Numbered from the stretch's first letter, positions 1-18,746 are shown. The stretch: 41,627 nt of DNA from Candidatus Bathyarchaeia archaeon (GCA_038883795.1 JAVZLK010000011.1:1-41627); one strand, 5' to 3'. The notes: generated by a model not told the origin, from the sequence alone. A program made the numbers and translations.

Positions 1-862
1 CTGGTTGAGTGGTGCAGATGAGAACATACATGCCATTAATGTAGTAAATTTCCTCAGCTTCATAACCAAACCCACTTGCTGCTGTTATAACTGGATTTCC
101 AGAATATTTCGTAAATGTTCCAGTTATCGAATCTGATGTTGCGTAACCGATTTGCCGTGTCCCCGTAGCGGTTGCCTGTCCCGTATAAAACAAATAGTAT
201 GTGGAGCCTACTTTGATTATAAATGCATCATAAACGTGATAGGAGTCCCATCCGCTTGCGCTTTTTTCTAAAACGGTTGTACGATTAGTCCAGCTGCTGG
301 AATTTTCTATATCGGTGGATTGCATCCGTTTAATTTTCCAGTTAGTCTGCAAGTCTTGGTAGAACAGATACCATGTATTGCCTTCTTTCCACAAGAATGG
401 AGCTGCAATGCCGTTCTCATCTGCTGCCGGACTAATGTCGTATAGGTAAGTCCAGTTTATCATATCGGTAGATTTCAAAATTCGAATTTTCTTGTCTGCA
501 GGATTATCTGCTTCTGGGTCATAACTTATCGCCATATAATATGTGCTTCCATCCTTCCATATGCTTGGGTCTTTACAAGCATGACCAGAAACGGCGTAAA
601 CTGGGTTATTCTCATATTCTGTAACTGAAGAATTAACGGTTTTACTTTCCATCCAATAGTCCAAAACTGTTTCGCCGTCATCATCTGTGAAGCGGACATC
701 TCCAAAATCTGTTCTGCAATGACTGTTAAGGTAAACATTTTCTCCATTATCGGTTCCACTTCCATAGTGTGCCTTAACTCTTACTTGGTAATTTGTTCCA
801 GCACCGCTTGCGCTATTAATCACATGGCTTTTACGATAACTCCAGCCGCTGAGCCAACCCAT
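1..862 (-). CDS. Tail-tip/receptor-binding-like protein: DUF2341-like N-terminus followed by a glycoside-hydrolase-like five-bladed beta-propeller (3' partial)
   Basis: Absent from the ORF track because it has no stop in the window. Hand translation from ATG 862: MGWLSGWSYRKSHVINSASGAGTNYQV...DFGDVRFTDDDGETVLDYWME, then NNPV...KDPSIWKDGSTYYM...STDMINW...APFLWKEGNTWYLFY...DAFIIKVGSTYYLFYTG...IGYATS...KYSGNPVI (GH32/43/130-like blades). Confidence 0.75.
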   Translation of the reverse strand, partial: MGWLSGWSYRKSHVINSASGAGTNYQVRVKAHYGSGTDNGENVYLNSHCRTDFGDVRFTDDDGETVLDYWMESKTVNSSVTEYENNPVYAVSGHACKDPSIWKDGSTYYMAISYDPEADNPADKKIRILKSTDMINWTYLYDISPAADENGIAAPFLWKEGNTWYLFYQDLQTNWKIKRMQSTDIENSSSWTNRTTVLEKSASGWDSYHVYDAFIIKVGSTYYLFYTGQATATGTRQIGYATSDSITGTFTKYSGNPVITAASGFGYEAEEIYYINGMYVLICTTQP

Positions 863-883
863 CGGAGTAAACCTCAGAAGCGC

Positions 884-1360
884 TTAGCTCGGTCTCTGGA
901 ATTTCGGCGTATAGTAAACTTTGACTGTGTCGCCGTTAACCACGTTTTTTGTTGTGTATGTGTCTCGGCAATACATTGTTCCGCCAGAAGAGGCATTGAA
1001 TAATCCGCACTCGTTTAAAGCGTAAGTTCCCGTTATGTTAAAGGTAGCGTCAACAGAGCATTCGCCGACATTAGCGTCTTTGCTATATGTGCCCTGGACA
1101 CGCATTACTTCATTGCCTAAAGCTGTTTGGCTTGCAGAGGGTGTCGTGCTGTCTGTTCCAATAGCAACATAATTGAATACTGCTGGTCTGTTTCCGCTTG
1201 AGTCGAAAGCTTGCCCACATAAAGCGTTTAAGCCCGCATCAACTACTAAATCATTGAAATCTATGAATTTTTCATCTACGTCTATCAGTTTGCCGTTTCG
1301 CCAAACTTCTATGCGCCTTTGTATTCCAACTATTATTCCAGCTTTCTTTTTCAAATTCAT
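884..1360 (-). CDS. Putative tail fibre/collar attachment protein (DUF3751-like)
   Basis: LVVDAGLNAL...YVAIGT...SQTALGNE...LNECGLFNASSGG pattern typical of tail-collar/fibre N-terminal domains; lies distal to the hub gene. Confidence 0.55.
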   Translation of the reverse strand: MNLKKKAGIIVGIQRRIEVWRNGKLIDVDEKFIDFNDLVVDAGLNALCGQAFDSSGNRPAVFNYVAIGTDSTTPSASQTALGNEVMRVQGTYSKDANVGECSVDATFNITGTYALNECGLFNASSGGTMYCRDTYTTKNVVNGDTVKVYYTPKFQRPS

Positions 1361-1596
1361 TTCTCAATTTTTTCTCCTCCGCTTACACCAGCAAGGTTTG
1401 AACAACCAGCCTCAACTTTAGGATAGCGAACAACCGCTATCCAACCAACCTCACCGTCATAATAAACGCGGACAACCAAAACGTTGTCGTGGGTTTTGAA
1501 GAGTTTTTTGCCTTCGGTTCGGGCTACCGCTAAGACGTCGCCAACGTCTTTAAACTTTTCTTTGTCGTCGCGGATGATGAGGGCTTTGTCAGGCAT
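1357..1596 (-). CDS. Hypothetical protein in tail operon (79 aa)
   Basis: Overlaps both neighbours in a co-oriented operon. Confidence 0.6.
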   Translation of the reverse strand: MPDKALIIRDDKEKFKDVGDVLAVARTEGKKLFKTHDNVLVVRVYYDGEVGWIAVVRYPKVEAGCSNLAGVSGGEKIEK

Positions 1597-1828
1597 CTGT
1601 TCTGTTAACCTCCTTTAAAGTGCCATCGGGGTTCCATGTGAAAGTTAATGTGAAAATTTCATTGTTGCCCTCGTAGGCTTTTAATGTGGCTAAGGTGCCA
1701 TCCGTGTTCCATGAGAAACCTAGCTTTGTTATTTTCCTCCCTGATGGCGGTGCCATGATTCCGCTTAGGGCGCTGTGGATAGCCTTATAAGCTTCTTCAT
1801 AACGTCCATAGGGAACGCTATTGCTCAT
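1589..1828 (-). CDS. Hypothetical protein in tail operon (79 aa)
   Basis: Tightly packed between neighbours; internal repeat FSWNTDGTL / FTWNPDGTL. Confidence 0.6.
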   Translation of the reverse strand: MSNSVPYGRYEEAYKAIHSALSGIMAPPSGRKITKLGFSWNTDGTLATLKAYEGNNEIFTLTFTWNPDGTLKEVNRTDA

Positions 1829-1829
1829 T

Positions 1830-3440
1830 TTATATTAGCCTCGCAATTTTATATTTGCTAACGTGGTCCGTTTTGCTTTTTAGAGCGTAAAGATAATCAG
1901 CCAGAAGAGGCCCTTCTCTTCCAAGTTCTAAGGTGATTTCGAGGGTTTGAGTTTTTGCATCCACATCATACTCGACGCTTTCAATGCGGAAATCTGCATC
2001 GACATTCTCATTTGGGAGCGTCACGTGAATTTTGTCTCCTGGCAAAAGCGGAGTGTTGCCATAATCTATGACTGTGCTTTTTACTGTCAGATGTTCTGTT
2101 GGATTTTTTAGGTGGTTAAGGATGGCTTTAGCCCTTAATGTGCATTCGTTATCGTTGTAAAGTTCTTCATCGGTTTCTGTTAGTTCCCGCAGTCCATAGG
2201 TGCTTTGGCTGTTTGAGTCTTCTTGTGTAGCTGAGTATCTGGCGCCGGAAAACAGTAAATGGTCAATTAGCATTTGTATTGCAGAAACATTCTGGGAGTG
2301 GTTGATGGTGAAGCGGATTGCGCTTATATTACTCCAGTTTGGGTTGCCATTTTTTGTCCATGTTGGCTGTTGAGGATTAAGCACATATTTAATCCATCCG
2401 CTTGTGCTTGGAATCATGTTTGAAATGTCAACTTCAAAATAGTTGCTTGCGTCTGTTAAGAGGCGAACCTTAAAGTTTTGAAAGTATGCAGGCGCATAAT
2501 AAAGGCCCATCCAGAAACTGATGGTTTTGAGGCCATTTACGCCTTCAAAGTTTAAAGATGGCAAAGTCCGTTCCATCCAAAGGGTGGCTGCATTGGCGAT
2601 GTTTGCTTCTACGCTGTAGGAATCCGTGTATTGTTTTTGTCCGTTGCGGGTAACATGCCCACTGTTCAGGGTTAGGTTGCCGTTTGTGGACCATCCGCTT
2701 GTGGATTCCGTGTAACCGTCATCGTTTATGTCGCTGGGAAGCTGTTTTGTTGAGGCGCCGTAAACGGTTATTTTGTTGCGTATGCCGTGAATGTCCTTGC
2801 GATATTCATACTCTTCAATTTTTTCTGAAAGGCTGACTGGCGAGGTTTTGCTGTTGCGTGGGAAAAACTCGAATTTTGCGTCTGGTGCTATACGAAAATC
2901 ATAGCCTATAACGCCGTTTTTGTCTGCGGATTCTGCAATATACTTGATAATGTCGAAGACTGGCGTGTCCTCATATTCTAATTTTGTGTATGTGGTGTCG
3001 GTGTTTTCCACAAGTTCCGTGCCGTCTCTGACGTGGCTTAAACCAACATAATAATCAAGCAAGTGCTTAACGATGTCTTCGCCTTTCATGTTCTCAAAAG
3101 TGCCAGTGAAAACCCTGCGAAAAAGTCTTTCACCCCAACACCTGCCGCTAACACGCAAGTAATTTTCTGTCGGCGTAGATTCATATTTTACGGATTCAAC
3201 ACGGCAAGTAATTATTTGCGGACAGTTTGCGCCTCTGCCTATGCTTATGCTTCCATCCATCCCAACATTAATCGGATATGTGCCGCTTGGACTATACTTT
3301 TTATTCCAATTTTGCAAAAGCACTTCAAAGCTGCTGACCTCTTTTGTGCAGCCCAAATGAACACGGCATTGGATAACATCGCCTTGGGGTGGAGTCACGG
3401 AACCAAAAACAACAGCCACTTTGGGAATTTCAACGCTCAT
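1830..3440 (-). CDS. Baseplate hub / Tal-like tail protein with an inserted CBM-like beta domain
   Basis: Hub-like segments (SSFEVLL, LRVSGRCW, IRNKITVYG, DSNSQSTYGLRE, LLPGDKIHV...FRIESVEY); directly follows the tape-measure-like gene; Asn/Trp-rich insert at about aa 235-400. Confidence 0.7.
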   Translation of the reverse strand: MSVEIPKVAVVFGSVTPPQGDVIQCRVHLGCTKEVSSFEVLLQNWNKKYSPSGTYPINVGMDGSISIGRGANCPQIITCRVESVKYESTPTENYLRVSGRCWGERLFRRVFTGTFENMKGEDIVKHLLDYYVGLSHVRDGTELVENTDTTYTKLEYEDTPVFDIIKYIAESADKNGVIGYDFRIAPDAKFEFFPRNSKTSPVSLSEKIEEYEYRKDIHGIRNKITVYGASTKQLPSDINDDGYTESTSGWSTNGNLTLNSGHVTRNGQKQYTDSYSVEANIANAATLWMERTLPSLNFEGVNGLKTISFWMGLYYAPAYFQNFKVRLLTDASNYFEVDISNMIPSTSGWIKYVLNPQQPTWTKNGNPNWSNISAIRFTINHSQNVSAIQMLIDHLLFSGARYSATQEDSNSQSTYGLRELTETDEELYNDNECTLRAKAILNHLKNPTEHLTVKSTVIDYGNTPLLPGDKIHVTLPNENVDADFRIESVEYDVDAKTQTLEITLELGREGPLLADYLYALKSKTDHVSKYKIARLI

Positions 3441-3442
3441 GG

Positions 3443-3985
3443 CTATTCCAAACCCCGCCTACACAGTTCCTCTTCTCCAGCCCTTCGAATGCTTCGCCCA
3501 CGCTCTGGCATGCCAGCCACAGCCTCATTAAAACCTTGAACAGATGCGGTGGCAGCATTCATTTGGCTGGCGAAATACGCTATGGCTGCAGCAGCCGCTA
3601 TAATGGCGGCTACTCCAACACCAGTCAAAGCAAGAAAAGTCGCATAGCTAATGTTTAGGGCGTTTTGAGCTGCTGTGGCAATCCAGCAAGCGGCAGCATA
3701 AACCTTTTGGGCTATGGCAACGCCCCACGAAGTACGCATAAACATTCCCATCACGCTTATGACCATCATGGCGGAATTGAAAACCCGCGCTTGCTCATCA
3801 TTTAATAAGCCAAACTGGTGGGCTATATGTCCAATGGCTGTTCCAGTAGCCCCTAAACCAGCAATAGCAGAGCCTAAAGCCCTAATGCGAAGGCTTAAGG
3901 CTTCAGCATCAGTCTGGATTCTTGCAAACTCGTGGCTTGCACGGTTAACAGCACGGATTGTTATTGCAATTTCACGGAAACTCAT
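3443..3985 (-). CDS. Very short tape-measure-like protein (180 aa)
   Basis: N-terminal IAITIRAVNRAS motif typical of TMPs, Ala/Gly-rich helical and hydrophobic segments, position between chaperone/gp10 and hub. Confidence 0.65.
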   Translation of the reverse strand: MSFREIAITIRAVNRASHEFARIQTDAEALSLRIRALGSAIAGLGATGTAIGHIAHQFGLLNDEQARVFNSAMMVISVMGMFMRTSWGVAIAQKVYAAACWIATAAQNALNISYATFLALTGVGVAAIIAAAAAIAYFASQMNAATASVQGFNEAVAGMPERGRSIRRAGEEELCRRGLE

Positions 3986-4353
3986 GTTAGTCCAGCCTCC
4001 ATTTTGGCTTGGTCAATAGCCTCGCAGACGATTTGCTCAAGCCTTGGCAGATACTCCTGAATGGCTGGGTAAAGGAATGGGCGGGCTTGCATGTGGCGGG
4101 TTCCAAACTCCACGAATAGGGCGTATGTGGCTTCTGCGCCTATTTCAGCAACCCAATCTTGAATTTTGGCATAAATAGAACTGCGCAAGTATCCAGTCCT
4201 GATGGGCGCAAGTTGTTTCGCATAGGCTTTAACTTTTTCAGCCCAGCTTGCCAAAAGCCTTTGCACATGCTCTTTCATGGCGGAATCAAACCTTTCCATT
4301 GCCATTTTAAACTCTTCAAAGCCTTCCACAACGTATTTTATTTCAACCGCCAT
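3982..4353 (-). CDS. HK97 gp10-family tail completion protein
   Basis: AKQLAPIRTGYLRSSI...YALFVEFGTRHMQARPFLYPA signature. Confidence 0.9.
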   Translation of the reverse strand: MAVEIKYVVEGFEEFKMAMERFDSAMKEHVQRLLASWAEKVKAYAKQLAPIRTGYLRSSIYAKIQDWVAEIGAEATYALFVEFGTRHMQARPFLYPAIQEYLPRLEQIVCEAIDQAKMEAGLT

Positions 4354-4547
4354 TTGGCTTCACGTTCCGCCTTCGCTTTTTCCTCCTCCATTTGACGGTC
4401 TAACTCGTTGAGGATAACGATGAATTGCTGGATGGTTTTGGCTGGCTGTCTTGCAAGTTGGTTTGGTGTCCAACCGAACTCTTTGCAGAGCCTAAACTCT
4501 GTGAGGGTTGGGTTTGGCTTTTGGCGTCTGATGCAGCGGATAAAAAA
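4338..4547 (-). CDS. -1 frameshift extension of the tail assembly chaperone (gpGT-like)
   Basis: The -1 frame is open from the slippery heptamer to TAA at 4340-4338 and reads IRCIRRQKPNPTLTEFRLCKEFGWTPNQLARQPAKTIQQFIVILNELDRQMEEEKAKAEREAKWRLK. Confidence 0.75.
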   Translation of the reverse strand, partial: FFIRCIRRQKPNPTLTEFRLCKEFGWTPNQLARQPAKTIQQFIVILNELDRQMEEEKAKAEREAKWRLK

Positions 4548-4873
4548 GCAGACTCTTCAAAGCCTACATGGTTAAGCCTATTAACGATTTGGCTGAAAAT
4601 TTCGCCCAAACCAATGGGAACCCCATCTTCTTCGCTAAGCAGTTTCTCAAGAGTTATGGGCTTGTGTGATGGCTGCTCCCTAAGGGAAGCCATTATGGTT
4701 TCGGCTTGGATGGCTATGTAATCGCTTGCTATTACTTGTCCAGTGTGCGGACTATATCGCGTATATTTTTGGATTATTCTGCTACGTTTAGCCCAAGAGA
4801 TTTCACTAAAAACATATTTGCCCGCATATTCCTTGCCAAACTCTTCGCCAATAATCACAGTTTCTGTCCTCAT
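4400..4873 (-). CDS. Tail assembly chaperone (gpG-like)
   Basis: Immediately downstream of the tail tube gene; contains an in-frame T TTT TTA slippery site followed by a low-complexity Ser/Gln tail. Confidence 0.75.
   Translation of the reverse strand: MRTETVIIGEEFGKEYAGKYVFSEISWAKRSRIIQKYTRYSPHTGQVIASDYIAIQAETIMASLREQPSHKPITLEKLLSEEDGVPIGLGEIFSQIVNRLNHVGFEESAFLSAASDAKSQTQPSQSLGSAKSSVGHQTNLQDSQPKPSSNSSLSSTS
4541..4547 (-). other. Candidate programmed -1 ribosomal frameshift heptamer T TTT TTA
   Basis: X XXY YYZ heptamer correctly phased in the chaperone frame (GCT TTT TTA). Confidence 0.75.
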
Positions 4874-5727
4874 CAGCTTATCACCACATCCCTCGCAACA
4901 AAAGAAGCCTTCAAACTTACAAGGTCCTCAACCTTTGTGGGCGTGCTAACGCTTTCCCACTTGCAATATTTGAAAAGGGCGCTTTTTGTTCCGCCTAAAC
5001 CAAATTTTAAGCTGAACTCGCTATCATTCACCACATCATCGTATTCCTGCTTACTTTCAAACTCGAAGATTAACTCGCCAGTTAGGCTGCGGTGGCGGGC
5101 TGGCAAATACTTGAGGATTTCACCGTTTGTGGAGCGGATTACGGGCACTTGCTTAAGGTTATTTTCGATAGTGAACTTCCAATCCGTAACCCTCTCAACC
5201 GCCGTTAGGCCCGAACCGTCTCCAGCTCCGCGTTGCACATAACTGTCGTAGTATGGGACAGCGCCAGCATAATCAGCATATGTGGCTCCGCTTATCTTCG
5301 AAGTTCCAACAGCCAAATTCTGCCCAACCAGCTCCACATTCGCCTTAACAACATCTTCGATGCCGCATTCCACAACAGCCTTATCCATCCTGCACCCTTT
5401 AAAGAGCAAATCAACGATTCCAGAGGGTTTTTCGTAAAATACTTCGATACTTAAAGAGTTCAGCGTGGCTATGTGCTGCAGAAAGTTTATGGAAGCATCG
5501 CTTGGCAATGGATAGGCAACTTTTAAGCCCACATCCCTCAAACCCTTCTTAATGGCTTGTAAGTCTCGGCTTCCAACCCCACGAACCTTAATTAGGCTTG
5601 GGTTCAAAAGGGGTTCGACGCTTTCGGCTTTTATGCCAATCATTAGGGGGTTTGATGGTGTTTCGCCGTAGCTTGTTTCTTCCACGTAATAGATTTTTGC
5701 TTCATGCGCTCCAAATGGCAAACTCAT
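4873..5727 (-). CDS. Major tail tube protein (non-contractile)
   Basis: YYVEETSYGETP N-terminal motif, FTIENNL and LTGEL segments; between terminator and chaperone; no sheath gene nearby. Confidence 0.85.
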   Translation of the reverse strand: MSLPFGAHEAKIYYVEETSYGETPSNPLMIGIKAESVEPLLNPSLIKVRGVGSRDLQAIKKGLRDVGLKVAYPLPSDASINFLQHIATLNSLSIEVFYEKPSGIVDLLFKGCRMDKAVVECGIEDVVKANVELVGQNLAVGTSKISGATYADYAGAVPYYDSYVQRGAGDGSGLTAVERVTDWKFTIENNLKQVPVIRSTNGEILKYLPARHRSLTGELIFEFESKQEYDDVVNDSEFSLKFGLGGTKSALFKYCKWESVSTPTKVEDLVSLKASFVARDVVIS

Positions 5728-5729
5728 CT

Positions 5730-6692
5730 TTACTCCTCCATTATTGTAACATTTTCAAAAAACCATGACTTCACAAGGAATTCGGTGCGCCACAAGAAGG
5801 GCTTAACCCGCACCTCATCAACATCACGAAAACTTACAATGTCCACGTAGGCTATGCCATTAACAGCAAACTCAACCTCAACATAATCACAGTAAAGAAC
5901 CGCTTGAGTTTCGCCGTCGCTTGGGAAAGTGGTTTTGGCAAGCAAATAGGCATAGCCATCAGCATCAACATAGTTCGGCAAATTAGAAGACAAGTTTATC
6001 ATTAAAACCTCATCGGTTGCGCTGCTGCCGGAAACAGCATTCTCCCAAACATTTGCCACGTGATTCCAAACTTTTATTGTGGCGCCATTTCCAGAAGGCG
6101 CAACGCCATAACCCTCAAACTTCAAAATCAACCGCTTAAGAAGGTTTTCATCGGCGTCGATTTTGAAGCGGAAAAGCGTATAGGCGTATTTTCCATTTTC
6201 TAAGACGGATTTGCTTAAACGGTTGTCGTCGCTATACCAGATTTTCTGATATTCGCCTTCAGCGAACTCGCTCCAGCCATCATCGTTAGGTGGCAAATCA
6301 GAGACTGAAACGCCATGGAAAGCTTCATGCGTTTCAGAAGCTACACCAACACCACAAAAATTGTAATTCACAATGTTTGGCGTGTTCCGTTTTCCATGAA
6401 TTACGCGGTTGATTTCGCTGCACACTTTTTCGCGGATACTTCTATCAGAAGCCCAAACGTTAACCCTTAAAAAGTGGCAGAGGCGCCTAAGACTTCCATC
6501 AAAACTTAACTTTTCATCTTCGCCCCTCTCAAGCCCAACAGTGATTTGCCCATCAAAACTTTCCAATATTTCACGGTCCAACCATTCCTGTCCAACATGA
6601 ATTTTGGCTATGGAGCCATCCTCTTTAACAACCAGCAAATATCTCTTAAGCAAACGAATAAGCGTTAAAACAGGGCTCTCCACAGTAGTCAT
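5730..6692 (-). CDS. Tail terminator-like protein with a ~170-aa inserted beta domain
   Basis: Position just before the tube gene; terminator-like ends (LRVNVWASDRSIREKVCSEINRVI ... FLWRTEFLVK) flank an insert. Confidence 0.55.
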   Translation of the reverse strand: MTTVESPVLTLIRLLKRYLLVVKEDGSIAKIHVGQEWLDREILESFDGQITVGLERGEDEKLSFDGSLRRLCHFLRVNVWASDRSIREKVCSEINRVIHGKRNTPNIVNYNFCGVGVASETHEAFHGVSVSDLPPNDDGWSEFAEGEYQKIWYSDDNRLSKSVLENGKYAYTLFRFKIDADENLLKRLILKFEGYGVAPSGNGATIKVWNHVANVWENAVSGSSATDEVLMINLSSNLPNYVDADGYAYLLAKTTFPSDGETQAVLYCDYVEVEFAVNGIAYVDIVSFRDVDEVRVKPFLWRTEFLVKSWFFENVTIMEE

Positions 6693-8077
6693 GGAGTGAT
6701 GAGCCTCCTACAGGTGGTTTGGTAATAGGCGGGTTCACCCATCCAACGATAAACCTTGACCGGACCCACCTCAAAATCAACGCCGCCCCGCCTAATCTTG
6801 TCTCGGGTTCTGATGGGCAGAAAGGTTTGGATGGTTATGTAGTCTGTTATTGCATAGCCCGGTTCAAGGACAATTTCTGCTGGATTTTCAACCCTAACTA
6901 TGGCTTTAAGGCTAATTCCATCGCCATAAGAGACGGTTTCGCCAGCCTCTAAAATTGGATATAAAGTTAGGTTTTCGCCGAATTTTTCCAAAATCGCCTT
7001 GAAAGGCGTATGCTTAGGCGTATAACGAAGAAGCAAAAGTCCAAGCCAAGAAACCGTTATTATGCTCTGTTTATTCTCCACAGGGCTCCAGTCTTTGAAT
7101 TTTACTCCCCAAAACATAAAATCAGAATAATGCCCATCCAAAATCTGAACACTCAACTCTAGGCTTGGATTATCCTTAGCTGCACGAGTGTCATGCAAGA
7201 TGCCGCATGTAACGCTGTCATAGTATTCGCATGCAGCCTTCCGCTTAACAATGTCTATGTAGCCCGCCCAACAAAAGTTTGGGTTGTATCCAGCATATTC
7301 TGCGCTTGGTCCTATGGCGTTTAAAGTTTCATAAACCCTTTGAACTGTGGGGCTCCAGCCTTCATAACTGTAAAGTCCCAATAAAGCATAAGCGAAGCAA
7401 TCATCATAAATTTGGCTTTCATCCACGCCCGCCCTGTGCCACGCATTGTCTGAAGGGTCATAGTATAGCCATAGGTTTTCAAAGCCGCTTCGGAGAAAAT
7501 CTACAAGTTTAACAATCATGTCTTGATAAGTGTTGGCATTATCTGTGTCATGGGTTTCGGCGAGCATTTTTAAGCCCAAAACCCCATAAAGGCATTCGAC
7601 ATCCATCTGCAAAAGCCAATCATCATTAAGGGTAACAGCCCTTGCAAAACCGCCATAACTCTGTCTATCCTGCATAGCCTTCAAAAACGTAAAGCCAGCA
7701 AGCCTTGCAGCATTCAAATAATCCAAATCTTTCGTTAACGCATGAGCCTTCAAAAGCGATGGAATAACACGGCAAGCATCAATAGCATAATAATAATCGC
7801 TTGCCTCGTTGCTTTTGAAGCCGCCATAAGCGTTTTTGGCATTGTCTGTGCATTGTTGGGTTAAAATCCAATCAGCCAAAGAAATAATCTTGTCATAAAC
7901 CTCACTTTTCTTTGCTATGCAGCGGCTGTCAGAATAGGCTTCGTAGAGAAAGTCTATGGCAAAAGCGGCGGCTGCCACACCCCGCTCGCCCACAACGCCG
8001 GAACCTGGCACATAATAAAAATATGGCGCATTAGCCAAAACAAACTGCAAATAAACGTTTAAGGCTTCATCAAACAT
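6689..8077 (-). CDS. Head-closure (stopper)-like protein fused to an N-terminal alpha/alpha-toroid (six-hairpin glycosidase-like) domain
   Basis: C-terminal ~105 aa (ILEKFGENLTL...IRTRDKIRRGGVDFEV...YYQTTCRR) resemble gp16/FII-like stoppers; N-terminal part has toroid repeats (LADWILTQQ..GGF, YLNAARLAGFTFL..MQ..GGF). Confidence 0.6.
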   Translation of the reverse strand: MFDEALNVYLQFVLANAPYFYYVPGSGVVGERGVAAAAFAIDFLYEAYSDSRCIAKKSEVYDKIISLADWILTQQCTDNAKNAYGGFKSNEASDYYYAIDACRVIPSLLKAHALTKDLDYLNAARLAGFTFLKAMQDRQSYGGFARAVTLNDDWLLQMDVECLYGVLGLKMLAETHDTDNANTYQDMIVKLVDFLRSGFENLWLYYDPSDNAWHRAGVDESQIYDDCFAYALLGLYSYEGWSPTVQRVYETLNAIGPSAEYAGYNPNFCWAGYIDIVKRKAACEYYDSVTCGILHDTRAAKDNPSLELSVQILDGHYSDFMFWGVKFKDWSPVENKQSIITVSWLGLLLLRYTPKHTPFKAILEKFGENLTLYPILEAGETVSYGDGISLKAIVRVENPAEIVLEPGYAITDYITIQTFLPIRTRDKIRRGGVDFEVGPVKVYRWMGEPAYYQTTCRRLITP

Positions 8078-8431
8078 TTAGGCATACCTCACATGAGGCG
8101 TTTTTAAGCCATGCAAAATCCTTTCTAACTCAGCCTGCAAAACATCCAAGGGCGGAGCCTTGCTTAGTACGCTTATGTTTTGGTCTCCGAGACTGAAACT
8201 TAAGCCAACTGCCGAACCGCCAGTCAAATAGCAAATGGCATAAACTGCCGCCAAAACAGTTATAAACTCCTTTTCCGCGTCGCTGCAATCTGCATAATCA
8301 ATTTCTCTTCCAAGCTCAAGCTCCAACGTAACCTCAGCCCGTTTAATCATCTTAAAAATTTTAGCGTCTGGAACGTCAGCCGAACTGAGATTTAACACAT
8401 CTCGGACGTCATCGGGTGAAACGCTTGCCAA
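8078..8431 (-). CDS. Head-tail adaptor (gp15/gp6-like)
   Basis: VSPDDVRDVL...DAKIFKMIKRAE helical pattern; first gene of the neck/tail block; probable TTG start at 8431 behind a GAGGT ribosome-binding site. Confidence 0.7.
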   Translation of the reverse strand: MASVSPDDVRDVLNLSSADVPDAKIFKMIKRAEVTLELELGREIDYADCSDAEKEFITVLAAVYAICYLTGGSAVGLSFSLGDQNISVLSKAPPLDVLQAELERILHGLKTPHVRYA

Positions 8432-8465
8432 ACCGCAAACCTCAAACAAAAATTAAAAATAGGCA

Positions 8466-8483: not shown

Positions 8484-8484
8484 A

Positions 8485-10679: not shown

Positions 10680-10825
10680 GGGTTAACTTAACCTTCAATT
10701 ATTGGTGAATGTTTCTTATAATTCTAAAGGTTAGAACCGTGGTAACTTTTCATTAAAGAATAAGGTTTAAATAATTTCTGTGCTAATCAATTCCGTCTGA
10801 CATGAAATAATTGGGAGTGCGACAT

Positions 10826-11038
10826 ATGGTTAATGAGGGAAAGGGACGCTTGTTCAGGAGGAAAGACGGCAAATACTTGATTTATTTACCGCTTGATTTG
10901 GCTCAGGACAGCATGTTTCCGTTTAAGGAATTCACGAAAACGAAGAGGGGCACAGATTCCATTGCTGTCAAAGTGAGTTTCAAGCTTGGAGACGACAAAC
11001 TAATCATTGAGAAGTGGCAAGAGCCGAAACAGCAATAA
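10826..11038 (+). CDS. Small protein, possibly AbrB/SpoVT-like DNA-binding fold
   Basis: GRLFRRKDGKYLIYLPLDLA...VKVSFKLGDDKLIIEK pattern; upstream TTTAAATA box and GGGAG ribosome-binding site. Confidence 0.55.
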   Translation: MVNEGKGRLFRRKDGKYLIYLPLDLAQDSMFPFKEFTKTKRGTDSIAVKVSFKLGDDKLIIEKWQEPKQQ

Positions 11039-11070
11039 AAATTGGGTGCTTTGCCGTCTTTATTTTGCCT

Positions 11071-12673
11071 TTAACGTTTTCTTTTGCGAGTTAGCAGTGT
11101 TAATAGCGTGGATGTTGCGAGTATTGGAAGTATTAGTTGTGGCGGGAATTCTGGAATCACGTGATATCTGTATTCTTGTCCTAAATCTTGGGTTGTGATT
11201 GTGTTGTTGAAGTTGTCTTCGGCTATGATTATGTAGGTTACGTTTGTACAGTATGGAAGGGCGGGTATTGTGCCATTGTAGAGGTTTCCTTCAAGATTAG
11301 CCATGACCACTGTTCCATTCCATGTTCCAGTGGCATTAGTGTAAGTGTAGTTTAGCGTTACCTGTTTTACTCCGCTTAAGTCGTCGGTAACATTAGCATA
11401 AACCATAACCTCATTTTCTGGATAAACACTGTCGTTAGCTGGTTGCTGATGCACATTCTCTATTGAAGGCGGAGTAATATCCACCAGAGTTTGGAAAACG
11501 TAAAGGCTATCATAGCCAGGACCCGCCACTGCAGTTATGATGCCGTTTCCAGACATGGAAATTAATGGACTTGATTGGGGTAAATCAAATTCTTCTATCA
11601 CTTCGCCATTACCCTTAAGGATCATCACTTATGGCAACATCAAATATCTGACTATTGAGGCTATGCCAGTCCTCACTTATCCACCCTGACAAACTCCTTG
11701 CATTAGACCAGAAATACAATCCTCCATGGTATAGGTCATCGGAGCCAGCTATAACCTCGTTGCCGTCAGAGCTTAGGTCCACGCAGACGAATGATTCATA
11801 ATGGTTCCATGAAGGTTCTGGGTCGCCTGTCAAGTTTGTGGCGTTTGCCCAATAGTGGAGAGTTGTCGCATAGTTGGTTACTGCCGCAACAGCATAACCG
11901 TCATCAGAAACTTCAATATCCACCACGTAACAGCCACTATAATTTAATGCGCTATGAGCAATCCAAATGGGATCATAGTATCCTGATGCAGTATTTGCGT
12001 CTTCGTAAACGGCTACAAAACCATTATGCAAATCGCTACGGTTTTCCCCTCCTACAGCCACATATTTGCCATCTGAAGACATGTCGACAGCTCGTATATC
12101 ATTTACAGGTAGCCAATTACCCCATGTATAATCTTCGTCTTCGCCATATCTACTGGTGCACTCAGCATAATACCACACATTTGGTCCCGTGCCACCTCCT
12201 ACAACATATTCTCCGTCATCGGACATGTCTAATGTGCCTCTTTCCATGGGTCCCAAAAGCCACATGCTCGTCCATGTGGGAGTTAAGCGCTCACCAGTTG
12301 TTGCACGGGAATTGTTAAAGTAACGTAGATACCCATCATTGCTGCCCGTAACCACATATTCGCCGTTAGCGGATATGGCCACAGATAGGAGAGTTGTTGC
12401 TGGATACCACCATTTTGGAGTTGAAATGTTCCATTCAAAATAGTACAAGCCCGTCTCATTAACAGCGGCTATATAATTGCCGTCTTTTGAAACTGCCACG
12501 TCATATACGCTCATAGAATTGTTCCAAAGCATAAGTATTCCATAAATTTTCGAAAGTGGCTGGTCTATGCCATCGGGTGCTTTCACTTCAACAGTATAAA
12601 ACCCATAGAAGAGCATGGCAGACAGCAAAGCAGTTAGGCTTAGAATCAAAACATATTTTGTTTTCATAGGCAT
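11071..12673 (-). pseudogene. Split WD40-like beta-propeller surface protein with Ig-like domain and PEF-CTERM anchor
   Basis: ORF 11615-12673 has a signal peptide and blades (VAVSKDG, VAISANG, DMSDDG, DMSSDG, EVSDDG, DLSSDG) and stops at DVAISDDP. ORF 11071-11628 continues in another frame (ISMSGNG blade, Ig-like domain, VIPEFP-TM-RKRKR). Confidence 0.7.
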
Positions 12674-12749
12674 CGCCCACCATTTTCTTTGATTCAGTTT
12701 TTATAACTTTTGGAAAATTTAGCTCCGAAAAGAGATAAAAAGAAGGATT

Positions 12750-12989
12750 TTATGGCTTTGCCGTGTCCACAAGCTTCTGCAGCCAAACAGTTATGGCTGT
12801 TGGACCAACAAGGGCTGTGTAAACGTCGAAGGTCATGCCAGCCATGTCAAGTCCAAGGGCTGAAAATGTGCCTATGGCTAGTGTTCGCAGAAACTTTCGC
12901 CAGTTAAAAGGCTTGTCTTGTGCTGCATAGCCCAAAAAAGCGTAGATTAGGGCTGCGCAAACTCCTAAACTTATGTTTAATACGTTCAT
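12750..12989 (-). CDS. Small membrane protein, holin-like
   Basis: 79 aa with 2-3 hydrophobic helices and an FNWRKFLRT motif; last gene of the head block; strong GGAGGTGA ribosome-binding site. Confidence 0.55.
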   Translation of the reverse strand: MNVLNISLGVCAALIYAFLGYAAQDKPFNWRKFLRTLAIGTFSALGLDMAGMTFDVYTALVGPTAITVWLQKLVDTAKP

Positions 12990-13092
12990 TTTTTCACCTC
13001 CCTTTTAGGCTTTTATTTTGGTTTCCCGCCTCCAAGGAAGCGCATACGCCATTTAACCCGTGAGGGAGAAAGGAGAAAGGCTAAAAACTGCT

Positions 13093-14310
13093 TCATTTTT
13101 TTGCGCTTTCCATGGAGGTTTCAGGCTTTTCCCAAAGCTGCCAACCAAACTTTACGGCGTTCTTGCGAAACTCTTCTTGACGAATGAGCCCAAGCTCAGC
13201 AGCCTTAAGCATGTCAGCCATAACAATTTCTGGCACCTTTTCACATCCCCAGTTTAAGCGAACCTGCGCCTCTGCTGGGTTGAAGCCTGCTTGAGCCAAA
13301 ACTGGATTAAAGATTTCACGTTCAACTTGCCGCTTAATGTATCGCTGAATAGGTTTGATGAGCATGCTTTGGAGGTCTAAGGCTGCTTTTGCAGAGGCTT
13401 CCGTAAAGCCCGGAGTGCTGAAAAGGCGTGGCAATGGGGTTTCGCATCCGAGATAGAACTGGTTTATTATGTGTTCAATGTAGTATTCGAAGCGGGCTCT
13501 CGGGTCAAGGGTTAAGGGTTTTATGTCTCCTTTTCCGCTGTAGAAAAGCCAGGCGCCTTCTTCGCCGCGGCTTTTTATGGCTTTCTCAAACTTTTGGATT
13601 GTGGCTTCGTCTGCCCTTTCCAACAGCGCCAAAACGTCTGGTCCAGCATATTTTTCAAAAATTTTTGGCATTATACGCTCAATTTTTGCCTTCATCCAAG
13701 CATAGGCTGGACGGTGGTCAGACTGGAATGTGAGCGAATGCAGGAGCACTTGTAAGACGCCAGTTCCGAAACTTGAAGTGCCAATATGGTTTATTCTCCA
13801 GTGGATTATGGCTTCGGACTTTAGGTTTTCGCCGCCGTAACTTTGCCTAAGCTTATAACTTTCAACCTTGTATGGAAGCCTTAATGCGCCATCTTGAATG
13901 TAGGTTTGTTCAATGCGCTCCACAGCATCCACTGGAAGCCTATGCAGCTCCTTTAGGCGTTCAGGGGTAATCTTAAGCCAAAACTCGTTTCCACAAGCAA
14001 TCAAGATGCGCGCCATATCGCAGAGGAGCGCATCCAAATTAACATTTTCATTAAACTTGTCCACAACCCTTTTCGCTTCCTCAGCCTGCTCGTAGGCTTC
14101 ATTAACAGTCGTGTAGAAGCCCATGCCAACGGCGGATGCCGCTAATAAATCAACGCTTGCCTTGCATGTGGGGTCTCGCTCATAAAGCTTTATGACATCG
14201 CTAAGCGGGATGCTTGGCGTTTCATAAACAGTTGATGATTGCGGATAGGCGTATCCGCTTCGGGCTTTAAGGGAAAAAGCCTCAAGTAAGCGTTTCAAAA
14301 TTTTGTTCAC
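13093..14310 (-). CDS. Portal protein
   Basis: LYERDPTCKASVDLLA, LIACGNEFW, IIHWR...FGTG, IKPIQRYIKRQVE..IF motifs; 405 aa. Confidence 0.88.
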   Translation of the reverse strand: MNKILKRLLEAFSLKARSGYAYPQSSTVYETPSIPLSDVIKLYERDPTCKASVDLLAASAVGMGFYTTVNEAYEQAEEAKRVVDKFNENVNLDALLCDMARILIACGNEFWLKITPERLKELHRLPVDAVERIEQTYIQDGALRLPYKVESYKLRQSYGGENLKSEAIIHWRINHIGTSSFGTGVLQVLLHSLTFQSDHRPAYAWMKAKIERIMPKIFEKYAGPDVLALLERADEATIQKFEKAIKSRGEEGAWLFYSGKGDIKPLTLDPRARFEYYIEHIINQFYLGCETPLPRLFSTPGFTEASAKAALDLQSMLIKPIQRYIKRQVEREIFNPVLAQAGFNPAEAQVRLNWGCEKVPEIVMADMLKAAELGLIRQEEFRKNAVKFGWQLWEKPETSMESAKK

Positions 14311-14555
14311 TCCAAACCCTCCAAAAGTTTAGCGCCTTTCTCGGTAATCACGTAAGGAGCCCGATGCTTCTGGTCGCTTTTCTGCACATAACCATTCTGA
14401 ACAAGATAGTGGAATATGCCCTCAAAAGTAGCATGAGTCCCAAACTTTTTAACAGTTCTTTTTTCAAGCTCGGTTCTACAAAGGGGCTGCCTACTGAGCT
14501 CCTTTAGTACGGTTTTGGCTAAATGCAATCTATCCCGCAAATTTCTCATGTGCAA
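14307..14555 (-). CDS. Winged helix-turn-helix protein
   Basis: YLVQNGYV...YVITEKGAKLLE wHTH signature. Confidence 0.8.
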   Translation of the reverse strand: MHMRNLRDRLHLAKTVLKELSRQPLCRTELEKRTVKKFGTHATFEGIFHYLVQNGYVQKSDQKHRAPYVITEKGAKLLEGLE

Positions 14556-14800
14556 ACAACCTCCACGGGTTTTCGGGTACTAAAAAATGGGGGAAAATGA
14601 CGAGCACAAACCATTAGAACAGCCAAGTCTCTTTTGCCATCAGCCGCATAAGTCGTGGGCGCCAAGTCTGGATTGTAAGGCTCCATTTCAGCCCCGCATA
14701 ATGGACAAAGCCTAAAACAGTGGCAGACAATGATGTCATCCTTGCGGTTTGAATGATGTGTTTTTCCGCAGGATGGGCATTTGCCTTCAAACTTTGACAT
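14546..14800 (-). CDS. Small Cys/His-rich Zn-finger protein
   Basis: CPSC, CHC..CPLC, C..H motifs. Confidence 0.7.
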   Translation of the reverse strand: MSKFEGKCPSCGKTHHSNRKDDIIVCHCFRLCPLCGAEMEPYNPDLAPTTYAADGKRDLAVLMVCARHFPPFFSTRKPVEVVCT

Positions 14801-14829
14801 TTTGACCTAGCCTATATCCGCTTTTATGG

Positions 14830-15783
14830 TTATAGCGAAGTGCTAATGTTGACCATTTTTGCAACCGCCTTGCTTCTTAGAACGCCTAAGCCGAAGCGTG
14901 TTGTTGCTCTAACGCCGAACTTGCCACTTTTTGGGTCTTCCCAATCTTCGACGGTTATGTCTCTTCGCAAGAGCATGACAGCAGCCACACGGGTGTCTAT
15001 GGCGTAGGCTGTTCCGTTAGGCACTAAAGTGCTGGCTAAAACCTTCATGCCTAAAACGCTGCCAATAACACCGCGTTCCAAATCCACCTGTTCTGATGGC
15101 AAGTATTGGGCGTGGATGAATTTGTCATCGCTTAAAAGCTGATGCAACTGGATTTCGTTAACGGCTAAGACTGTTGGACGCCAATTTTCCCCTCTAACAG
15201 CATTATGAAGCTTCAGCACTCCAGACCAGTTGATGGCGTTTCCTCCATTATCTATGGGGGCTCCGCCGGCCAAGTCCGCATTTGCAATGGCGCCGTACAA
15301 TTCAAGTATTTTGTTTGTTTCCGCCTCGCCTAAGGCTCTTCCAACCTTTTCGGTCATGCTTTCCATAACGTTCCATGTAGCATCTTCTAAAAACTCCCTT
15401 GTCCACTCTTCAGAGGCTTCAGCAATAATATTGGTGTAAACGTCAACAGTGCTGATTTTCTTGCCACTCAGCCTAGTATAGGCGCCTTCAGCATAACGAT
15501 ACGCAATAGCCTTCTCATCAAGTGGAAAACGCTCCATGGATTCTGTTGTTGGTTTAACGGTTATGATTTCTCTACCTATCATTTCAGGGTTTGCCGCCTC
15601 AACAAGGGTGTCGTGCATTCTTCCCAAAGCGCCAGTCATGTCGCTGAACATGTGTTCTTTAATGCCGACTTCACAGTAACGCTTGAGAAAAGGATGCGTA
15701 GCCGCCTTATGCTTCAGCTCCTCCATAAGCTGCCTAAACTCTGGGTCGGAGTGCATGAGACTCTCAAAAAGTTTTGGTCGCAT
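14830..15783 (-). CDS. Major capsid protein (HK97 fold)
   Basis: EWTREFLEDA, IGSVLGMKVLASTLVPNGTAY, ATTRFGLGVLRSKAVAKM motifs; ATG 15783 behind AGGTGA. Confidence 0.92.
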   Translation of the reverse strand: MRPKLFESLMHSDPEFRQLMEELKHKAATHPFLKRYCEVGIKEHMFSDMTGALGRMHDTLVEAANPEMIGREIITVKPTTESMERFPLDEKAIAYRYAEGAYTRLSGKKISTVDVYTNIIAEASEEWTREFLEDATWNVMESMTEKVGRALGEAETNKILELYGAIANADLAGGAPIDNGGNAINWSGVLKLHNAVRGENWRPTVLAVNEIQLHQLLSDDKFIHAQYLPSEQVDLERGVIGSVLGMKVLASTLVPNGTAYAIDTRVAAVMLLRRDITVEDWEDPKSGKFGVRATTRFGLGVLRSKAVAKMVNISTSL

Positions 15784-15788
15784 AGCAA

Positions 15789-16220
15789 TCACCTTTCCAC
15801 ATAAATGAAGATTAGGTCGTCTGCAGCCGAAGCGGATTCAAGGGCTATTCCAAGTTTTCGGGCGTAGTAAATGGTGTATTGGGCTGTTCCGCCTTCGTTT
15901 ACGGACTGATCTGTTAATTGAAGAATTCTTTTGGAAGAGTCAGCTCCATAAACTGCTTTTCCACGAGTTACAGCTCCGCCAACTTTCACTTTAACTCTTC
16001 CACGAATCAAGACTGGACACGGGTCGCCTTGAGCAGCATTTTTGAGGGCTATTCCGATGCAGTCTTGGGCTGCTGTGGCTGGGCTAACCTTGTCATCAGC
16101 GCTTAGGTAAACTGGATCGCCTTTGGTTATGGCTGCATTAGCCACAAAAGTTTCGATTATGGCGTTTGGGTCATCTGTTTCGCCAATGCTCATCCAAGTT
16201 TTTCCAGTGTTATCTGCCAT
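15789..16220 (-). CDS. DUF2190-like capsid decoration/cement protein
   Basis: AAITKGDPV...IGIALKNAAQGDPCPV..RG...LGIALESASAADDLI; directly upstream of the capsid gene. Confidence 0.8.
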   Translation of the reverse strand: MADNTGKTWMSIGETDDPNAIIETFVANAAITKGDPVYLSADDKVSPATAAQDCIGIALKNAAQGDPCPVLIRGRVKVKVGGAVTRGKAVYGADSSKRILQLTDQSVNEGGTAQYTIYYARKLGIALESASAADDLIFIYVER

Positions 16221-16294
16221 AAAAATCACTCCTTAAATCCATTATTGTTTCAGCCAGTTCATCCTGGCTTACTCCAAAAACTATACTTCCACTT

Positions 16295-17920
16295 TTAACC
16301 ATCAAGTTTTGCCCTCCTACGAAGGTTTAATATGACACTGCGGAGTTCTTGGCAAAGCCTTTGGGGACCCAAACCCCAGCTTCTTTCTACCATAGGACTT
16401 GGCAAAACATTCTGAATCATGCGTATGGCTTCTTCCACTGGAATCATAGCCCTAGAATTCTTTATGAAACCTTCACTAACTTTAACATCGCTTTCGGTTT
16501 TTCCAGCAAAATCCCTTTCAAGCTTTTCAATGCGGCTTGTCAAAATATTGATGGCATCCTCAACTTCCCCCATGACATCTTCAATGCTGGCTATGAGCTC
16601 ATCCATGGTTGGCTCCAAAGAAAACGCAAAATCTGCATTAGCTGTTTTGTCTTCGCCCTCCTGCTCCAAAAGCTTTTCCTCTTCAGCAGAAGCGCCAACT
16701 CCAAGCCTTTTCTTGTGGGTTGCCAAATGCTTCATGGCTTGCTGCTTATAAGCTGTGGGAATTTCGCTTTGAGGCAACCGAGCATTGGCATTTCTTAAAT
16801 GCGGCAAGTCGATTGTGCCGTCTGCAGTGTGATGGGGAAACTTTCTGATAGTTTTGCCGCTTTCCTTATAAACCACGGCGAAGGCTGAGTCTGGAAGGGC
16901 ATTAATGTATTTGCGAGTCCAAATTCGCTCAAAAAGCTTTTTACCGCCAATTTTTCCACGCTCTTTCATTGACATCTGCAATGGCTCAGAGGCGCCTGCC
17001 GAAGCCATATAATGTGGATGGAGAAGGAGCCAGTCTCGAATTTTTGCTTCGTTCCACATCTTCTCTTTAGCGAAGAATATGCTTTGAACCCTTTGGGTTT
17101 CAGGTTCAGCCCGCAACCTTCCGATTAGGGCTAAAACGCCATTTTCTTTGTCAAGCCAAACGGTGCTGAAGTGTTCGGGCAGAAAAGCCGAAACATCTTG
17201 ACAAAAGCCTAGAATATATTCGCCGGAAATTATGGGCTCAAACGCTTGCTCCCTAAGCTTTAGCTTTTCCATTATTTGAATGTTTGTTTCTGGAACCCCT
17301 GGCACAGCCACAAGGCTTAATTCTGCATTATGTAAGCCATGCGGGATTTTTCCATCAACAACATCTATTGTTTCATAGTCTGCGCCGACGCTCACGTGCC
17401 CGATTAAGCCTTTGCGAATTTTCTCTGCTATCTCATCATCATATATTTCGGCTTCATACCAAAGGTTGGTGCCATCCCATTCAGCCTTAACAATTTTTCC
17501 AACAGCGTTTGGAACAGCCACATGCTCAACATAAACGGGCGCAGAAACAAGCTTTTGGGCGAAGGCCTGCAGTTCTTCAGGAGCGTAAATGTTAAGGTTT
17601 CGACTCATGCCAACCTTAAGCGCAATGCCACGAATCTTTAATGGTTTGTCGACGATTTTCTCCAAAACCTTGATGGCGAAGGAAGCCTCGCCTTTCTGAT
17701 GTTTTTCAAACCATGCCTTAGCCTTTTCAAGGGTCCAGCCCTTTGCAATCTCGAATAAATAGCTTTGAACAGCCATCCCTTCTTTGCCCTTTGGCTTGCC
17801 AACAACAGCCTTAATCCCCTCATCCTCGCTAAGCGTGATTGTGCGTAAACTGTTTTGTTCAAACTCTTCTGGGCTGCGGTGTCCGCTGCGAATATACTGG
17901 TCGGTTATTTCCCAAGGCAA
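16295..17920 (-). CDS. Prohead protease/scaffold multidomain protein
   Basis: Protease core (IRGIA..GMSRN.NIY, VEH, GHVSVG, ELSLVAVPG), duplicated ~75-aa domain, LPDSAFA...HLRNA.AR domain, acidic coiled coil. Confidence 0.85.
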   Translation of the reverse strand: MPWEITDQYIRSGHRSPEEFEQNSLRTITLSEDEGIKAVVGKPKGKEGMAVQSYLFEIAKGWTLEKAKAWFEKHQKGEASFAIKVLEKIVDKPLKIRGIALKVGMSRNLNIYAPEELQAFAQKLVSAPVYVEHVAVPNAVGKIVKAEWDGTNLWYEAEIYDDEIAEKIRKGLIGHVSVGADYETIDVVDGKIPHGLHNAELSLVAVPGVPETNIQIMEKLKLREQAFEPIISGEYILGFCQDVSAFLPEHFSTVWLDKENGVLALIGRLRAEPETQRVQSIFFAKEKMWNEAKIRDWLLLHPHYMASAGASEPLQMSMKERGKIGGKKLFERIWTRKYINALPDSAFAVVYKESGKTIRKFPHHTADGTIDLPHLRNANARLPQSEIPTAYKQQAMKHLATHKKRLGVGASAEEEKLLEQEGEDKTANADFAFSLEPTMDELIASIEDVMGEVEDAINILTSRIEKLERDFAGKTESDVKVSEGFIKNSRAMIPVEEAIRMIQNVLPSPMVERSWGLGPQRLCQELRSVILNLRRRAKLDG

Positions 17921-18037
17921 GCATAACCAGCCTCACACAACTAACACCAAACTAATATACGAAGAAAATGAAAAGGCGAATTGTACAACCCAAAAGCCCA
18001 CAAAAGCACCAACAAGAGGGGCTGAGAGAGTGGTTGA

Positions 18038-18220
18038 ATGCCCAGAAAATGCATAGTGAAAGTCGTCCTAAGCAAGGAACAAAAAGAAATCCTAACAGAA
18101 CTCGCAAGAAGACTTGGAACAAGCGAAAGCGAAACCTTAAGAATGGCTCTAATGGACTACGCAAAAGAACTTAGCCTCATAAAGGAAAGAATGCACAGGC
18201 TGGGTAAACAATTATTTTAA
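18038..18220 (+). CDS. Ribbon-helix-helix (CopG-like) regulator
   Basis: VKVVLSKEQKEILTELARRLGTSESETLRMAL; divergent from the head operon. Confidence 0.8.
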   Translation: MPRKCIVKVVLSKEQKEILTELARRLGTSESETLRMALMDYAKELSLIKERMHRLGKQLF

Positions 18221-18686: not shown

Positions 18687-18746
18687 TGGTAAAGTTTCGA
18701 GTTCTAAATTCAGATTCAGAGTTCACAAATATTTTATCAATGCATC

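Follow-up and report, generated by a model that had tools for sequence, protein, structure and literature searches.

A vertically inherited head-tail particle locus in Bathyarchaeia, a candidate gene-transfer-agent-like system

The gene transfer agent (GTA) RcGTA is controlled by a host phosphorelay, and an archaeal particle, the VTA of the euryarchaeon Methanococcus voltae, has been reported to transfer host DNA. The locus described here, a run of head and tail genes from a Candidatus Bathyarchaeia archaeon, occupies the left part of a 41,627-nucleotide stretch of DNA (JAVZLK010000011.1; hereafter, the window), which constitutes the entire contig C11 of an 81-contig metagenome-assembled genome (MAG; GCA_038883795.1, 2.18 Mb, 87% complete). 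Where RcGTA has its phosphorelay, the cluster in the window is flanked by a histidine kinase (HK) and response regulator (RR) pair. As judged by synteny with related genomes, the window holds ~19 kb of a ~31-kb element, and on balance we lean towards reading this element as a DNA-packaging particle locus that was immobilised, is inherited vertically and derives from viruses resembling Bathyarchaeia tailed provirus 1 (BATPV1). The gene content, the lack of an integrase, the shared chromosomal position, the co-divergence with the host and the preservation by selection make the locus a credible candidate for a GTA-like particle.

BATPV1 (JAAKEZ010000002_pro, 33,358 bp; Microbiol Spectr 2024, PMC11705971) was called temperate, its limits having been drawn from integrase, repeat and tRNA criteria. 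One relative of the window element, locus L073, is found on the same contig accession and, from the accession only, would lie inside BATPV1. Its major capsid protein (MCP) is 74% identical to that of the window, and its genes follow the same order, namely protease, cement protein, MCP, portal, 123-aa, 462-aa and 320-aa proteins, tail tube, 157-aa protein, gp10-like protein, 180-aa protein and tip protein, followed by the terminase block. The two differ in that BATPV1 resides at another locus and in a basal clade, whereas the window element lacks an integrase and att repeats and is found at a conserved NrdD-side locus.

Similar questions have been raised by Nvie-Pro1, NCAV2-Pro1 and CalSub-Pro, Caudoviricetes-derived loci of Thaumarchaeota and Aigarchaeota described as possibly domesticated and GTA-like (Krupovic et al. 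2019, PMC6563490). These loci likewise combine a full morphogenesis module, including TerL, with the absence of att sites and replication genes. However, they stem from unrelated virus lineages and were described as single loci, whereas the present analysis measured co-divergence and dN/dS as well as synteny across dozens of species. With the RcGTA type of Alphaproteobacteria, the subject of PMC5721377 and PMC10883770, the Bathyarchaeia locus shares a head-tail cluster with terminase, the lack of an integrase, vertical inheritance and purifying selection. It differs from the latter in its independent archaeal origin, an approximately twofold longer cluster, the presence of cargo and toxin-antitoxin-like genes inside the cluster and patchy retention; furthermore, neither small heads nor random packaging of host DNA are evidenced for the present locus. 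Among the papers listed in full-text searches on GTAs, proviruses and capsids of Bathyarchaeia and on archaeal GTAs and domestication, we found no description of this conserved locus.

Conserved position, co-divergence with the host and selection

To the right of 19 kb, C11 carries archaeal host genes, including those for a PAS-GAF histidine kinase, a response regulator, NrdR/NrdD and RpoH. A search with the MCP yielded 76 related loci in Bathyarchaeia genomes, with identities of 68–98%, and at 44 of these the same host flank (small genes, HK and/or RR, and NrdR/NrdD) was located within 10 kb. At the other 32 loci the flank was lacking in the DNA examined, the full 10 kb upstream being present for 9 of them. 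In a tree built from concatenated MCP, portal and cement proteins (88 rows, restricted to loci having all three genes at at least 85% coverage and without stops), all same-locus rows (43/43) fell into one clade with SH-aLRT support of 100, within which 9 rows, every one of them from genus g4, form a nested subclade with a different flank. The remaining copies belong to other clades, of which one, a basal one, holds the contig of the published provirus BATPV1. IMG/VR contained 49 related contigs, the most similar being clipped copies of the same-locus element, and a tblastn search of the Phage GenBank collection with the MCP produced no match.

The distances between copies of the element correlated with those between their flanking genes (Mantel r of 0.92 for NrdD and NrdR, 12 taxa; 0.89 for HK, 17 taxa; 0.79 for RR, 28 taxa), with none of 2000 permutations reaching values as high, and the head proteins have diverged by 0.19–0.22 as against 0.35 for HK and 0.27 for RR. 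When 19 rows were labelled with their 9 GTDB genera, the codes of which are based on unlinked markers, the element tree required 8 label changes, which is the minimum, and every labelled genus was monophyletic; none of 300 shuffles gave a number as low. Genus mixing in the other clades amounted to 6 changes versus a minimum of 5, with one genus being dominant, so that the contrast with the fixed clade is weak. Compared with G006, the closest relative (MCP 98% identical), dS was 0.29–0.72 for the element genes and 0.25–0.71 for the flank. The original prediction of vertical inheritance is thus corroborated by the fixed flank, the single clade, the Mantel correlations, the monophyly of genera and the agreement of dS between element and flank.

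The dN/dS ratios, which had been proposed as a check, indicate purifying selection: relative to G006, they ranged from 0.02 to 0.25 for the virion and terminase genes, next to 0.030 for NrdD. Four further within-genus pairs yielded values of 0.01–0.19, in agreement with the G006 pair (HSPs with a stop were left out for the 157-aa gene in 2 pairs and for the 123-aa gene in 1 pair). Purifying selection acts on the head, tail and terminase genes with the same strength as on the neighbouring housekeeping genes.

The window had been described as devoid of an integrase, tRNA genes and att-like repeats, and profile, tRNA and repeat searches agree. Neither PF00589 nor PF16795 had a match on C11 or on contig C18, which carries the rest of the element (see below), and no integrase was detected within ~35 kb of the same-locus element in any of 5 other genomes. 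No att-like direct repeat of at least 12 bp was found between the two end regions, the right border being only approximately known, and there is no tRNA gene in the window. Paralogous elements on contigs C31, C23 and C17 of the same genome do carry PF16795 (archaeal phage integrase). No replication gene was recognised among the Pfam matches of C11 1–19 kb and C18 19.8–32 kb, where several element genes are without annotation; the integrase-bearing paralog on C31 likewise shows no replication gene, and the absence is thus not discriminating. Taken together, these independent tests well support a vertically inherited, selected and immobile particle locus.

The virion genes of the window form a compact run on the minus strand from 18164 to 1, where the last gene, encoding a fibre, is open, that is, the contig ends inside the fibre gene. 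In G006, a single contig is colinear with C11 from 6444 to 647 and then with C18 from 31513 to 18804, and G007 displays the same C11-then-C18 colinearity. The C11 fibre gene probably continues as a 409-aa ORF at the end of C18, as suggested by colinearity with L098. TerL encoded on C18 is intact (PF03237, E 2e-19; phrog_2, E 2e-44), with a dN/dS of 0.147 relative to G006, and its motifs, which we take to be Walker A, Walker B and the nuclease acidic (Asp) motifs, are invariant in 9 of 9 aligned TerLs. The claim that no terminase is present is therefore accurate for the window, in which no TerL match was found, and inaccurate for the element, because the contig ends inside it and TerL is located on the syntenic C18. 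For the same reason, the notion of a structural-only cluster has to be abandoned, the element running past the contig end and including an intact TerL, and that of a particle that does not package DNA is not supported, given the invariant ATPase and nuclease motifs. With its intact-looking TerL, the element is predicted to be able to package DNA.

Four TerL genes are present in the genome, in which other contigs bear several partial copies from the same virus family, and this explains the break of the assembly at the C11 end. As multi-copy virus families break assemblies inside fibre genes, the lack of a terminase at the end of a MAG contig says little, which is a practical warning.

Gene content of the element and its surroundings

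The morphogenesis set from protease to tip protein was originally judged to be intact, and this assessment stands, with Pfam and PHROG matches for the cement, capsid, portal, tube, gp10-like, tip and fibre-like proteins, the protease being recognised at the fold level and the portal below the Pfam cut-off. The prohead protease gene (16295–17920, minus strand, as are all head, cargo and tail genes below) encodes an N-terminal domain of ~310 aa, a variable middle that differs between loci and a conserved C-terminus. Its product is without a family match in Pfam or PHROG. The best Foldseek match for a model of its N-terminal 315 aa (pLDDT 71) was T4 gp21 (5jbl; E 3e-3, TMt 0.55), with herpesvirus assemblins also being matched, and His133 and Ser177 of the protease domain are invariant in the aligned loci. 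The model hence supports assignment as a prohead protease at the fold level, the C-terminus of which may be a scaffold-like tail. Downstream are the genes for a 146-aa cement/decoration (or scaffold-like) protein (15789–16229; PF09956, E 6e-16; phrog_673) and for the 320-aa HK97-fold MCP (14830–15792; PF05065, E 1e-7, above the cut-off; phrog_267, E 2.5e-15), which matched six MCP PHROGs and has a dN/dS of 0.030 relative to G006. Inside the head operon, these are followed by a Cys-rich 84-aa protein (14546–14800) and a wHTH protein (14307–14555; HTH_45, E 8e-5; dN/dS 0.022). The 405-aa product of the next gene (13093–14310; dN/dS 0.048) is the probable portal, picked up by two libraries (PF04860, E 5e-7; phrog_12, E 4e-6), its Pfam score of 29.6 bits being below the curated cut-off of 39.1. 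Alignments of the protease domain, the portal and the 462-aa protein of the tail block yielded no significant match when used in PDB profile searches.

After the portal gene lies that of a 79-aa small membrane protein with hydrophobic segments (12750–12989), which is 87% identical in paralogs on C55 and C23. Small membrane proteins of 76–79 aa recur in the element, at 12750–12989 after the portal, on C18 at 25517–25747 before TerL and on C18 at 20514–20753 near the right end, and could be holin-like candidates. As noted in the original prediction, host-type genes split the cluster. Pfam searches identified a WD40 beta-propeller with an N-terminal hydrophobic segment (11615–12673) and a DUF7743 Ig-like protein (11071–11628), variable cargo (11071–12673) that is found only in the closest relatives and in L035, as well as a secreted 712-aa protein with an N-terminal hydrophobic segment that combines Zn-phospholipase C, a C39-like peptidase and DUF7743 (the PLC gene, 8541–10679). 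The latter gene is present in many same-locus copies, with a dN/dS of 0.135, and its product may act in release or lysis.

The tail half was originally credited with a promoter of its own; what is visible in front of it is an AT-rich gap of 91 bp (8450–8540). The tail block begins with a gene for a 123-aa protein (8078–8449), without a family match and present in 47 locus rows, which from its position only would be an adaptor candidate. The following 462-aa protein (6689–8077) was modelled with AF2 (pLDDT 68, pTM 0.70) as a glycoside-hydrolase-like (alpha/alpha)6 barrel with a beta-sandwich. With Foldseek hits to GH76 alpha-mannanases (E 2.4e-5, TMt 0.54), the modelled protein is probably a virion-associated glycan-degrading enzyme. 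The glycoside-hydrolase-like fold ruled out a sheath or a tape measure for this protein. Next in order are a 320-aa virion-module protein of the AF_1625_C family (5730–6692; dN/dS 0.11), for which the Atlas clusters carry PF27237 and are mostly viral, the 284-aa tail tube protein (4873–5727; PF18906, E 9e-15; phrog_290; dN/dS 0.066), a 157-aa protein without a family match that is conserved in relatives (4400–4873) and, between the latter and the 180-aa gene, an HK97 gp10-like tail completion/Neck1 protein (3982–4353; PF04883, E 1e-8; phrog_5, E 1e-22). The tape-measure protein had been described as tiny, and the gene located just before the tip gene (3443–3985) does encode an Ala/Gly-rich hydrophobic protein of 180 aa with a TM-like stretch at 110–142, without a family match and with a dN/dS of 0.087 relative to G006 and 0.042 in a further pair; on position and composition only, it is a plausible miniature tape measure, and the sole candidate for one.

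At the distal end of the block, the 536-aa Tal-like tail tip protein (1830–3440; YQBQ-like, E 1.4e-12; Prophage_tail; phrog_400) is mosaic, with 69% identity to G006 and a dN/dS of 0.25. Two 79-aa genes without family matches (1357–1596 and 1589–1828), conserved among relatives and 91–94% identical in G006 (dN/dS 0.09–0.13), separate it from a fibre-like virion protein of 158 aa (884–1360; phrog_5417, E 7e-15; tail-fibre phrog_4176, E 8.5e-10). The 5′ part of the fibre gene (2–862; GH43, E 9e-13, and DUF2341 in Pfam) encodes a conserved 75-aa N-terminal anchor, shared with 5 loci, and then a GH43-like domain that is inserted in the fibre of this genome and is extra relative to G006, with which the fibre C-terminus is 52% identical (dN/dS 0.45). 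Rapid evolution and domain swapping of tip and fibre genes, as seen here, are expected if particles still must bind cells. L043, L064, L068, L086 and L088, which are from other genera, have a gene that encodes this 75-aa fibre N-terminus right after the portal block, at ~13.3–13.8 kb, where it is part of the variable middle region instead of closing the tail block.

The C18 part of the element contains the C-terminus of the fibre, an Arc-like 58-aa gene, AbiEii-like, two PIN and HEPN-like genes, then three small genes (134, 76 and 117 aa) upstream of TerL, TerL itself, and genes for an ABC-like ATPase-GNAT protein, a nucleotidyltransferase and an RHH-like 147-aa protein, beyond which the host flank includes MscL and a class I tRNA synthetase (IleRS-type). 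The 493-aa ABC-like ATPase fused to GNAT (C18, L101, 10068–11549) is translationally coupled to TerL; on contig C17 it is coupled to the tip protein instead, and every terminase block seen retains it. Inspection by eye picked out a CTAAAAT/CTAAATT-like word that is repeated in AT-rich gaps in front of several operons (window 8450–8540, 12674–12749 and 18165–18353; C18 26136–26230). An 8-mer promoter word was found at no operon start here, only as single reverse-strand copies at C11 522 and C18 11164.

On the other side of the protease gene, across a gap of 117 bp, a string of genes diverges from the head operon on the plus strand: an RHH (CopG/Arc-like) regulator with a weak match to a repressor PHROG (18038–18220), two paralogous small proteins of 110 and 125 aa with a NitrOD5-like fold (18354–18686 and 18747–19124; Atlas structure match, TM 0.85, to a NitrOD5-bearing cluster), and the Pfam-identified PAS-GAF HK (19109–22285) and REC-only RR (22237–22710) of the host flank. 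All these genes are co-oriented, with ORFs overlapping at the junctions of the second small gene with HK and of HK with RR. A minus-strand ORF at 17952–18164 was dismissed as an antisense artefact of the plus-strand RHH gene. RHH was found in 76 locus rows, and in each of the paralogs seen (C77, C27, C31 and C26) it adjoins the protease gene; the NitrOD5-like small genes have paralogs in the C77 element and are kept in deletion remnants. The upstream end was originally thought to pass straight from the protease to RHH and host genes, which does not hold: RHH is divergent, and because RHH and the two small genes also occur in the paralogous C77 element, they are to be assigned to the element family rather than simply to the host. 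The small proteins are probably stand-alone output domains of a two-component system, and the arrangement suggests two-component control.

Among the related elements of this genome, the provirus on C31 (L146) carries PAPS-reductase-like, SMC/Rad50-like ATPase and SPL-like radical SAM genes as cargo (5237–10402), as well as a 981-aa N6 methyltransferase and the archaeal phage integrase. The RpoH gene of the host flank (33387–33941, plus strand) encodes a protein of 184 aa in total, in which the Rpb5 C-terminal domain is preceded by an N-terminal Mrr_cat/restriction-endonuclease-like domain; the usual archaeal RpoH is shorter. The one CRISPR array found in the genome, at the end of contig C30 (19203–19467), has 4 repeats of 37 nt and 3 full spacers, which match nothing in the genome or the fetched loci and are too few for inference. 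Part of the window is contained in 10 hot-spring metagenome rows from 4 studies, a list without any RNA data set. In 4 runs (X1, X2, X7 and X8), for which short Logan contigs were compared with window positions 1–20000 and paralogs were summed into the depth, no joint skipping the element was found.

Origin of the locus, competing explanations and significance

The source of the ~31-kb element would be a temperate tailed virus of the BATPV1-like group of Bathyarchaeia, a copy of which would have been fixed, without an integrase, beside RR/HK-NrdR-NrdD in the ancestor of a Bathyarchaeia family and inherited vertically since. The cell may still produce short-tailed, DNA-filled particles from the locus, and because the element would be unable to excise or copy itself, such particles would carry host DNA, either random or starting at a site in the element, as in a GTA-like system. 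The divergent string of RHH, NitrOD5-like, HK and RR genes would be the likely switch, and the secreted PLC/C39 enzyme the likely release factor. A more far-reaching version, which we put forward only tentatively, would see here a family-wide GTA of Bathyarchaeia, the first genetically defined outside Euryarchaeota, governed by a two-component/NitrOD5-like/RHH switch, in which in situ packaging by TerL exports host DNA (possibly with preference for the neighbouring chromosome, cf. lateral transduction) in short-tailed particles, the recipients being set by the fast-evolving fibres.

A number of observations weigh against the interpretation as an immobilised, vertically inherited packaging locus. 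The MCP was matched in only 39 of the 103 sampled genomes of the host family (16 of 40 for genus g4, 6 of 12 for g7), and many of the MCP-less genomes are at least 95% complete. Some lineages retain only remnants, consisting of a tip-protein stub and the terminase block in G254 and of the PLC gene as the sole element gene left in G164 and G176, or have a damaged TerL, truncated to a 263-aa frame in G003 and interrupted by an internal stop in G005. In the near-complete g4 genomes G001 and G002 (L092 and L096), the particle genes are split over two loci, with a five-gene terminase block on the opposite strand, ~22 kb from the head-tail cluster and past the response regulator. The gene in the TerS position is 58% identical to that of G006, compared with 93–94% for its neighbours, and looks exchanged; many genomes contain 2–5 related copies, some of them with integrases, so that active kin exist, with which the fixed copy could recombine. 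The ~31-kb element matches its relative, the provirus BATPV1, in size, with no sign of a reduced head. On the technical side, the join of C11 and C18 rests on synteny, no overlap between the contig ends having been found, the element tree comes from a quick LG+G4 search, and dN/dS was calculated by the Nei-Gojobori method on tblastn segments. The patchy distribution and the deletion remnants weaken a strong claim of domestication and of an indispensable function. A patchy and incongruent distribution had been named beforehand as evidence that would speak against vertical descent; the patchiness was indeed found, whereas incongruence was not, the genera being monophyletic.

The strongest competitor, with which the patchiness within genera would fit, is that the element is still an autonomous temperate virus with a narrow host range and a strict site, dependent on an unrecognised recombinase or on the integrase of a co-resident, and that its co-divergence with the host is only apparent. 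All hallmark genes including TerL are intact, related proviruses with integrases are present in the same genome, several element genes lack annotation, and the clipped copies of the element are listed in IMG/VR as viral contigs. However, no integrase is found in or near the element in 6 genomes, nor are there att-like repeats; dS of the element equals that of the flank in 5 independent pairs, with no sign of recent transfer, and each labelled genus is monophyletic on the element tree. A simple empty site could not be reconstructed in 5 capsid-less relatives, in which NrdD and the IleRS-type synthetase of the C18 flank are on different contigs; instead of clean empty sites, the NrdD-side flank of capsid-less genomes holds internal deletion remnants. 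We consider such a virus unlikely.

Ranking after it, and unlikely as well, is a host function other than gene transfer, with the locus producing a killing particle, acting as a decoy or in interference against related viruses, or delivering cargo enzymes. Such a function would be in keeping with purifying selection on the whole particle set, with the PIN, AbiEii-like and HEPN-like genes and secreted enzymes within the element and with the co-residence of related viruses in the genome, yet capsid, portal and terminase, the most conserved of the genes, are dispensable for a killing particle. Tailocins are ruled out by the presence and highest conservation of capsid, portal candidate and TerL, and a satellite or PICI by the full particle set of its own and the lack of integrase and replication genes.

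Rather improbable is a grounded, functionless prophage remnant that has stayed intact through slow decay or through repair by recombination with active relatives. The dN/dS values of 0.02–0.25 for ~25 genes in 5 pairs, at dS of ~0.3–0.7 (up to ~1.3), contrast with the ratio of ~1 and the frameshifts to which neutral decay would lead; the flanking HK and RR have diverged more than the head proteins have, and frequent replacement from outside would break the observed co-divergence. The deletion derivatives and broken TerL genes of some lineages, the absence from most genomes of the family and the exchanged appearance of the TerS-position, tip and fibre genes are the observations that fit with a remnant.

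Bathyarchaeia are among the most abundant archaea of sediments and hot springs; to our knowledge, none of them is genetically tractable, and we know of no established route of gene exchange among them. A vertically inherited, selected particle locus would, if the interpretation holds true, constitute an independent archaeal case of virus domestication and would provide a concrete and testable route of gene flow in Bathyarchaeia. Even if the element proves to be a virus, its presence at the same locus in more than 40 species, in intact or rearranged form or as a deletion stub, would offer an unusually clear time series of a grounded provirus.

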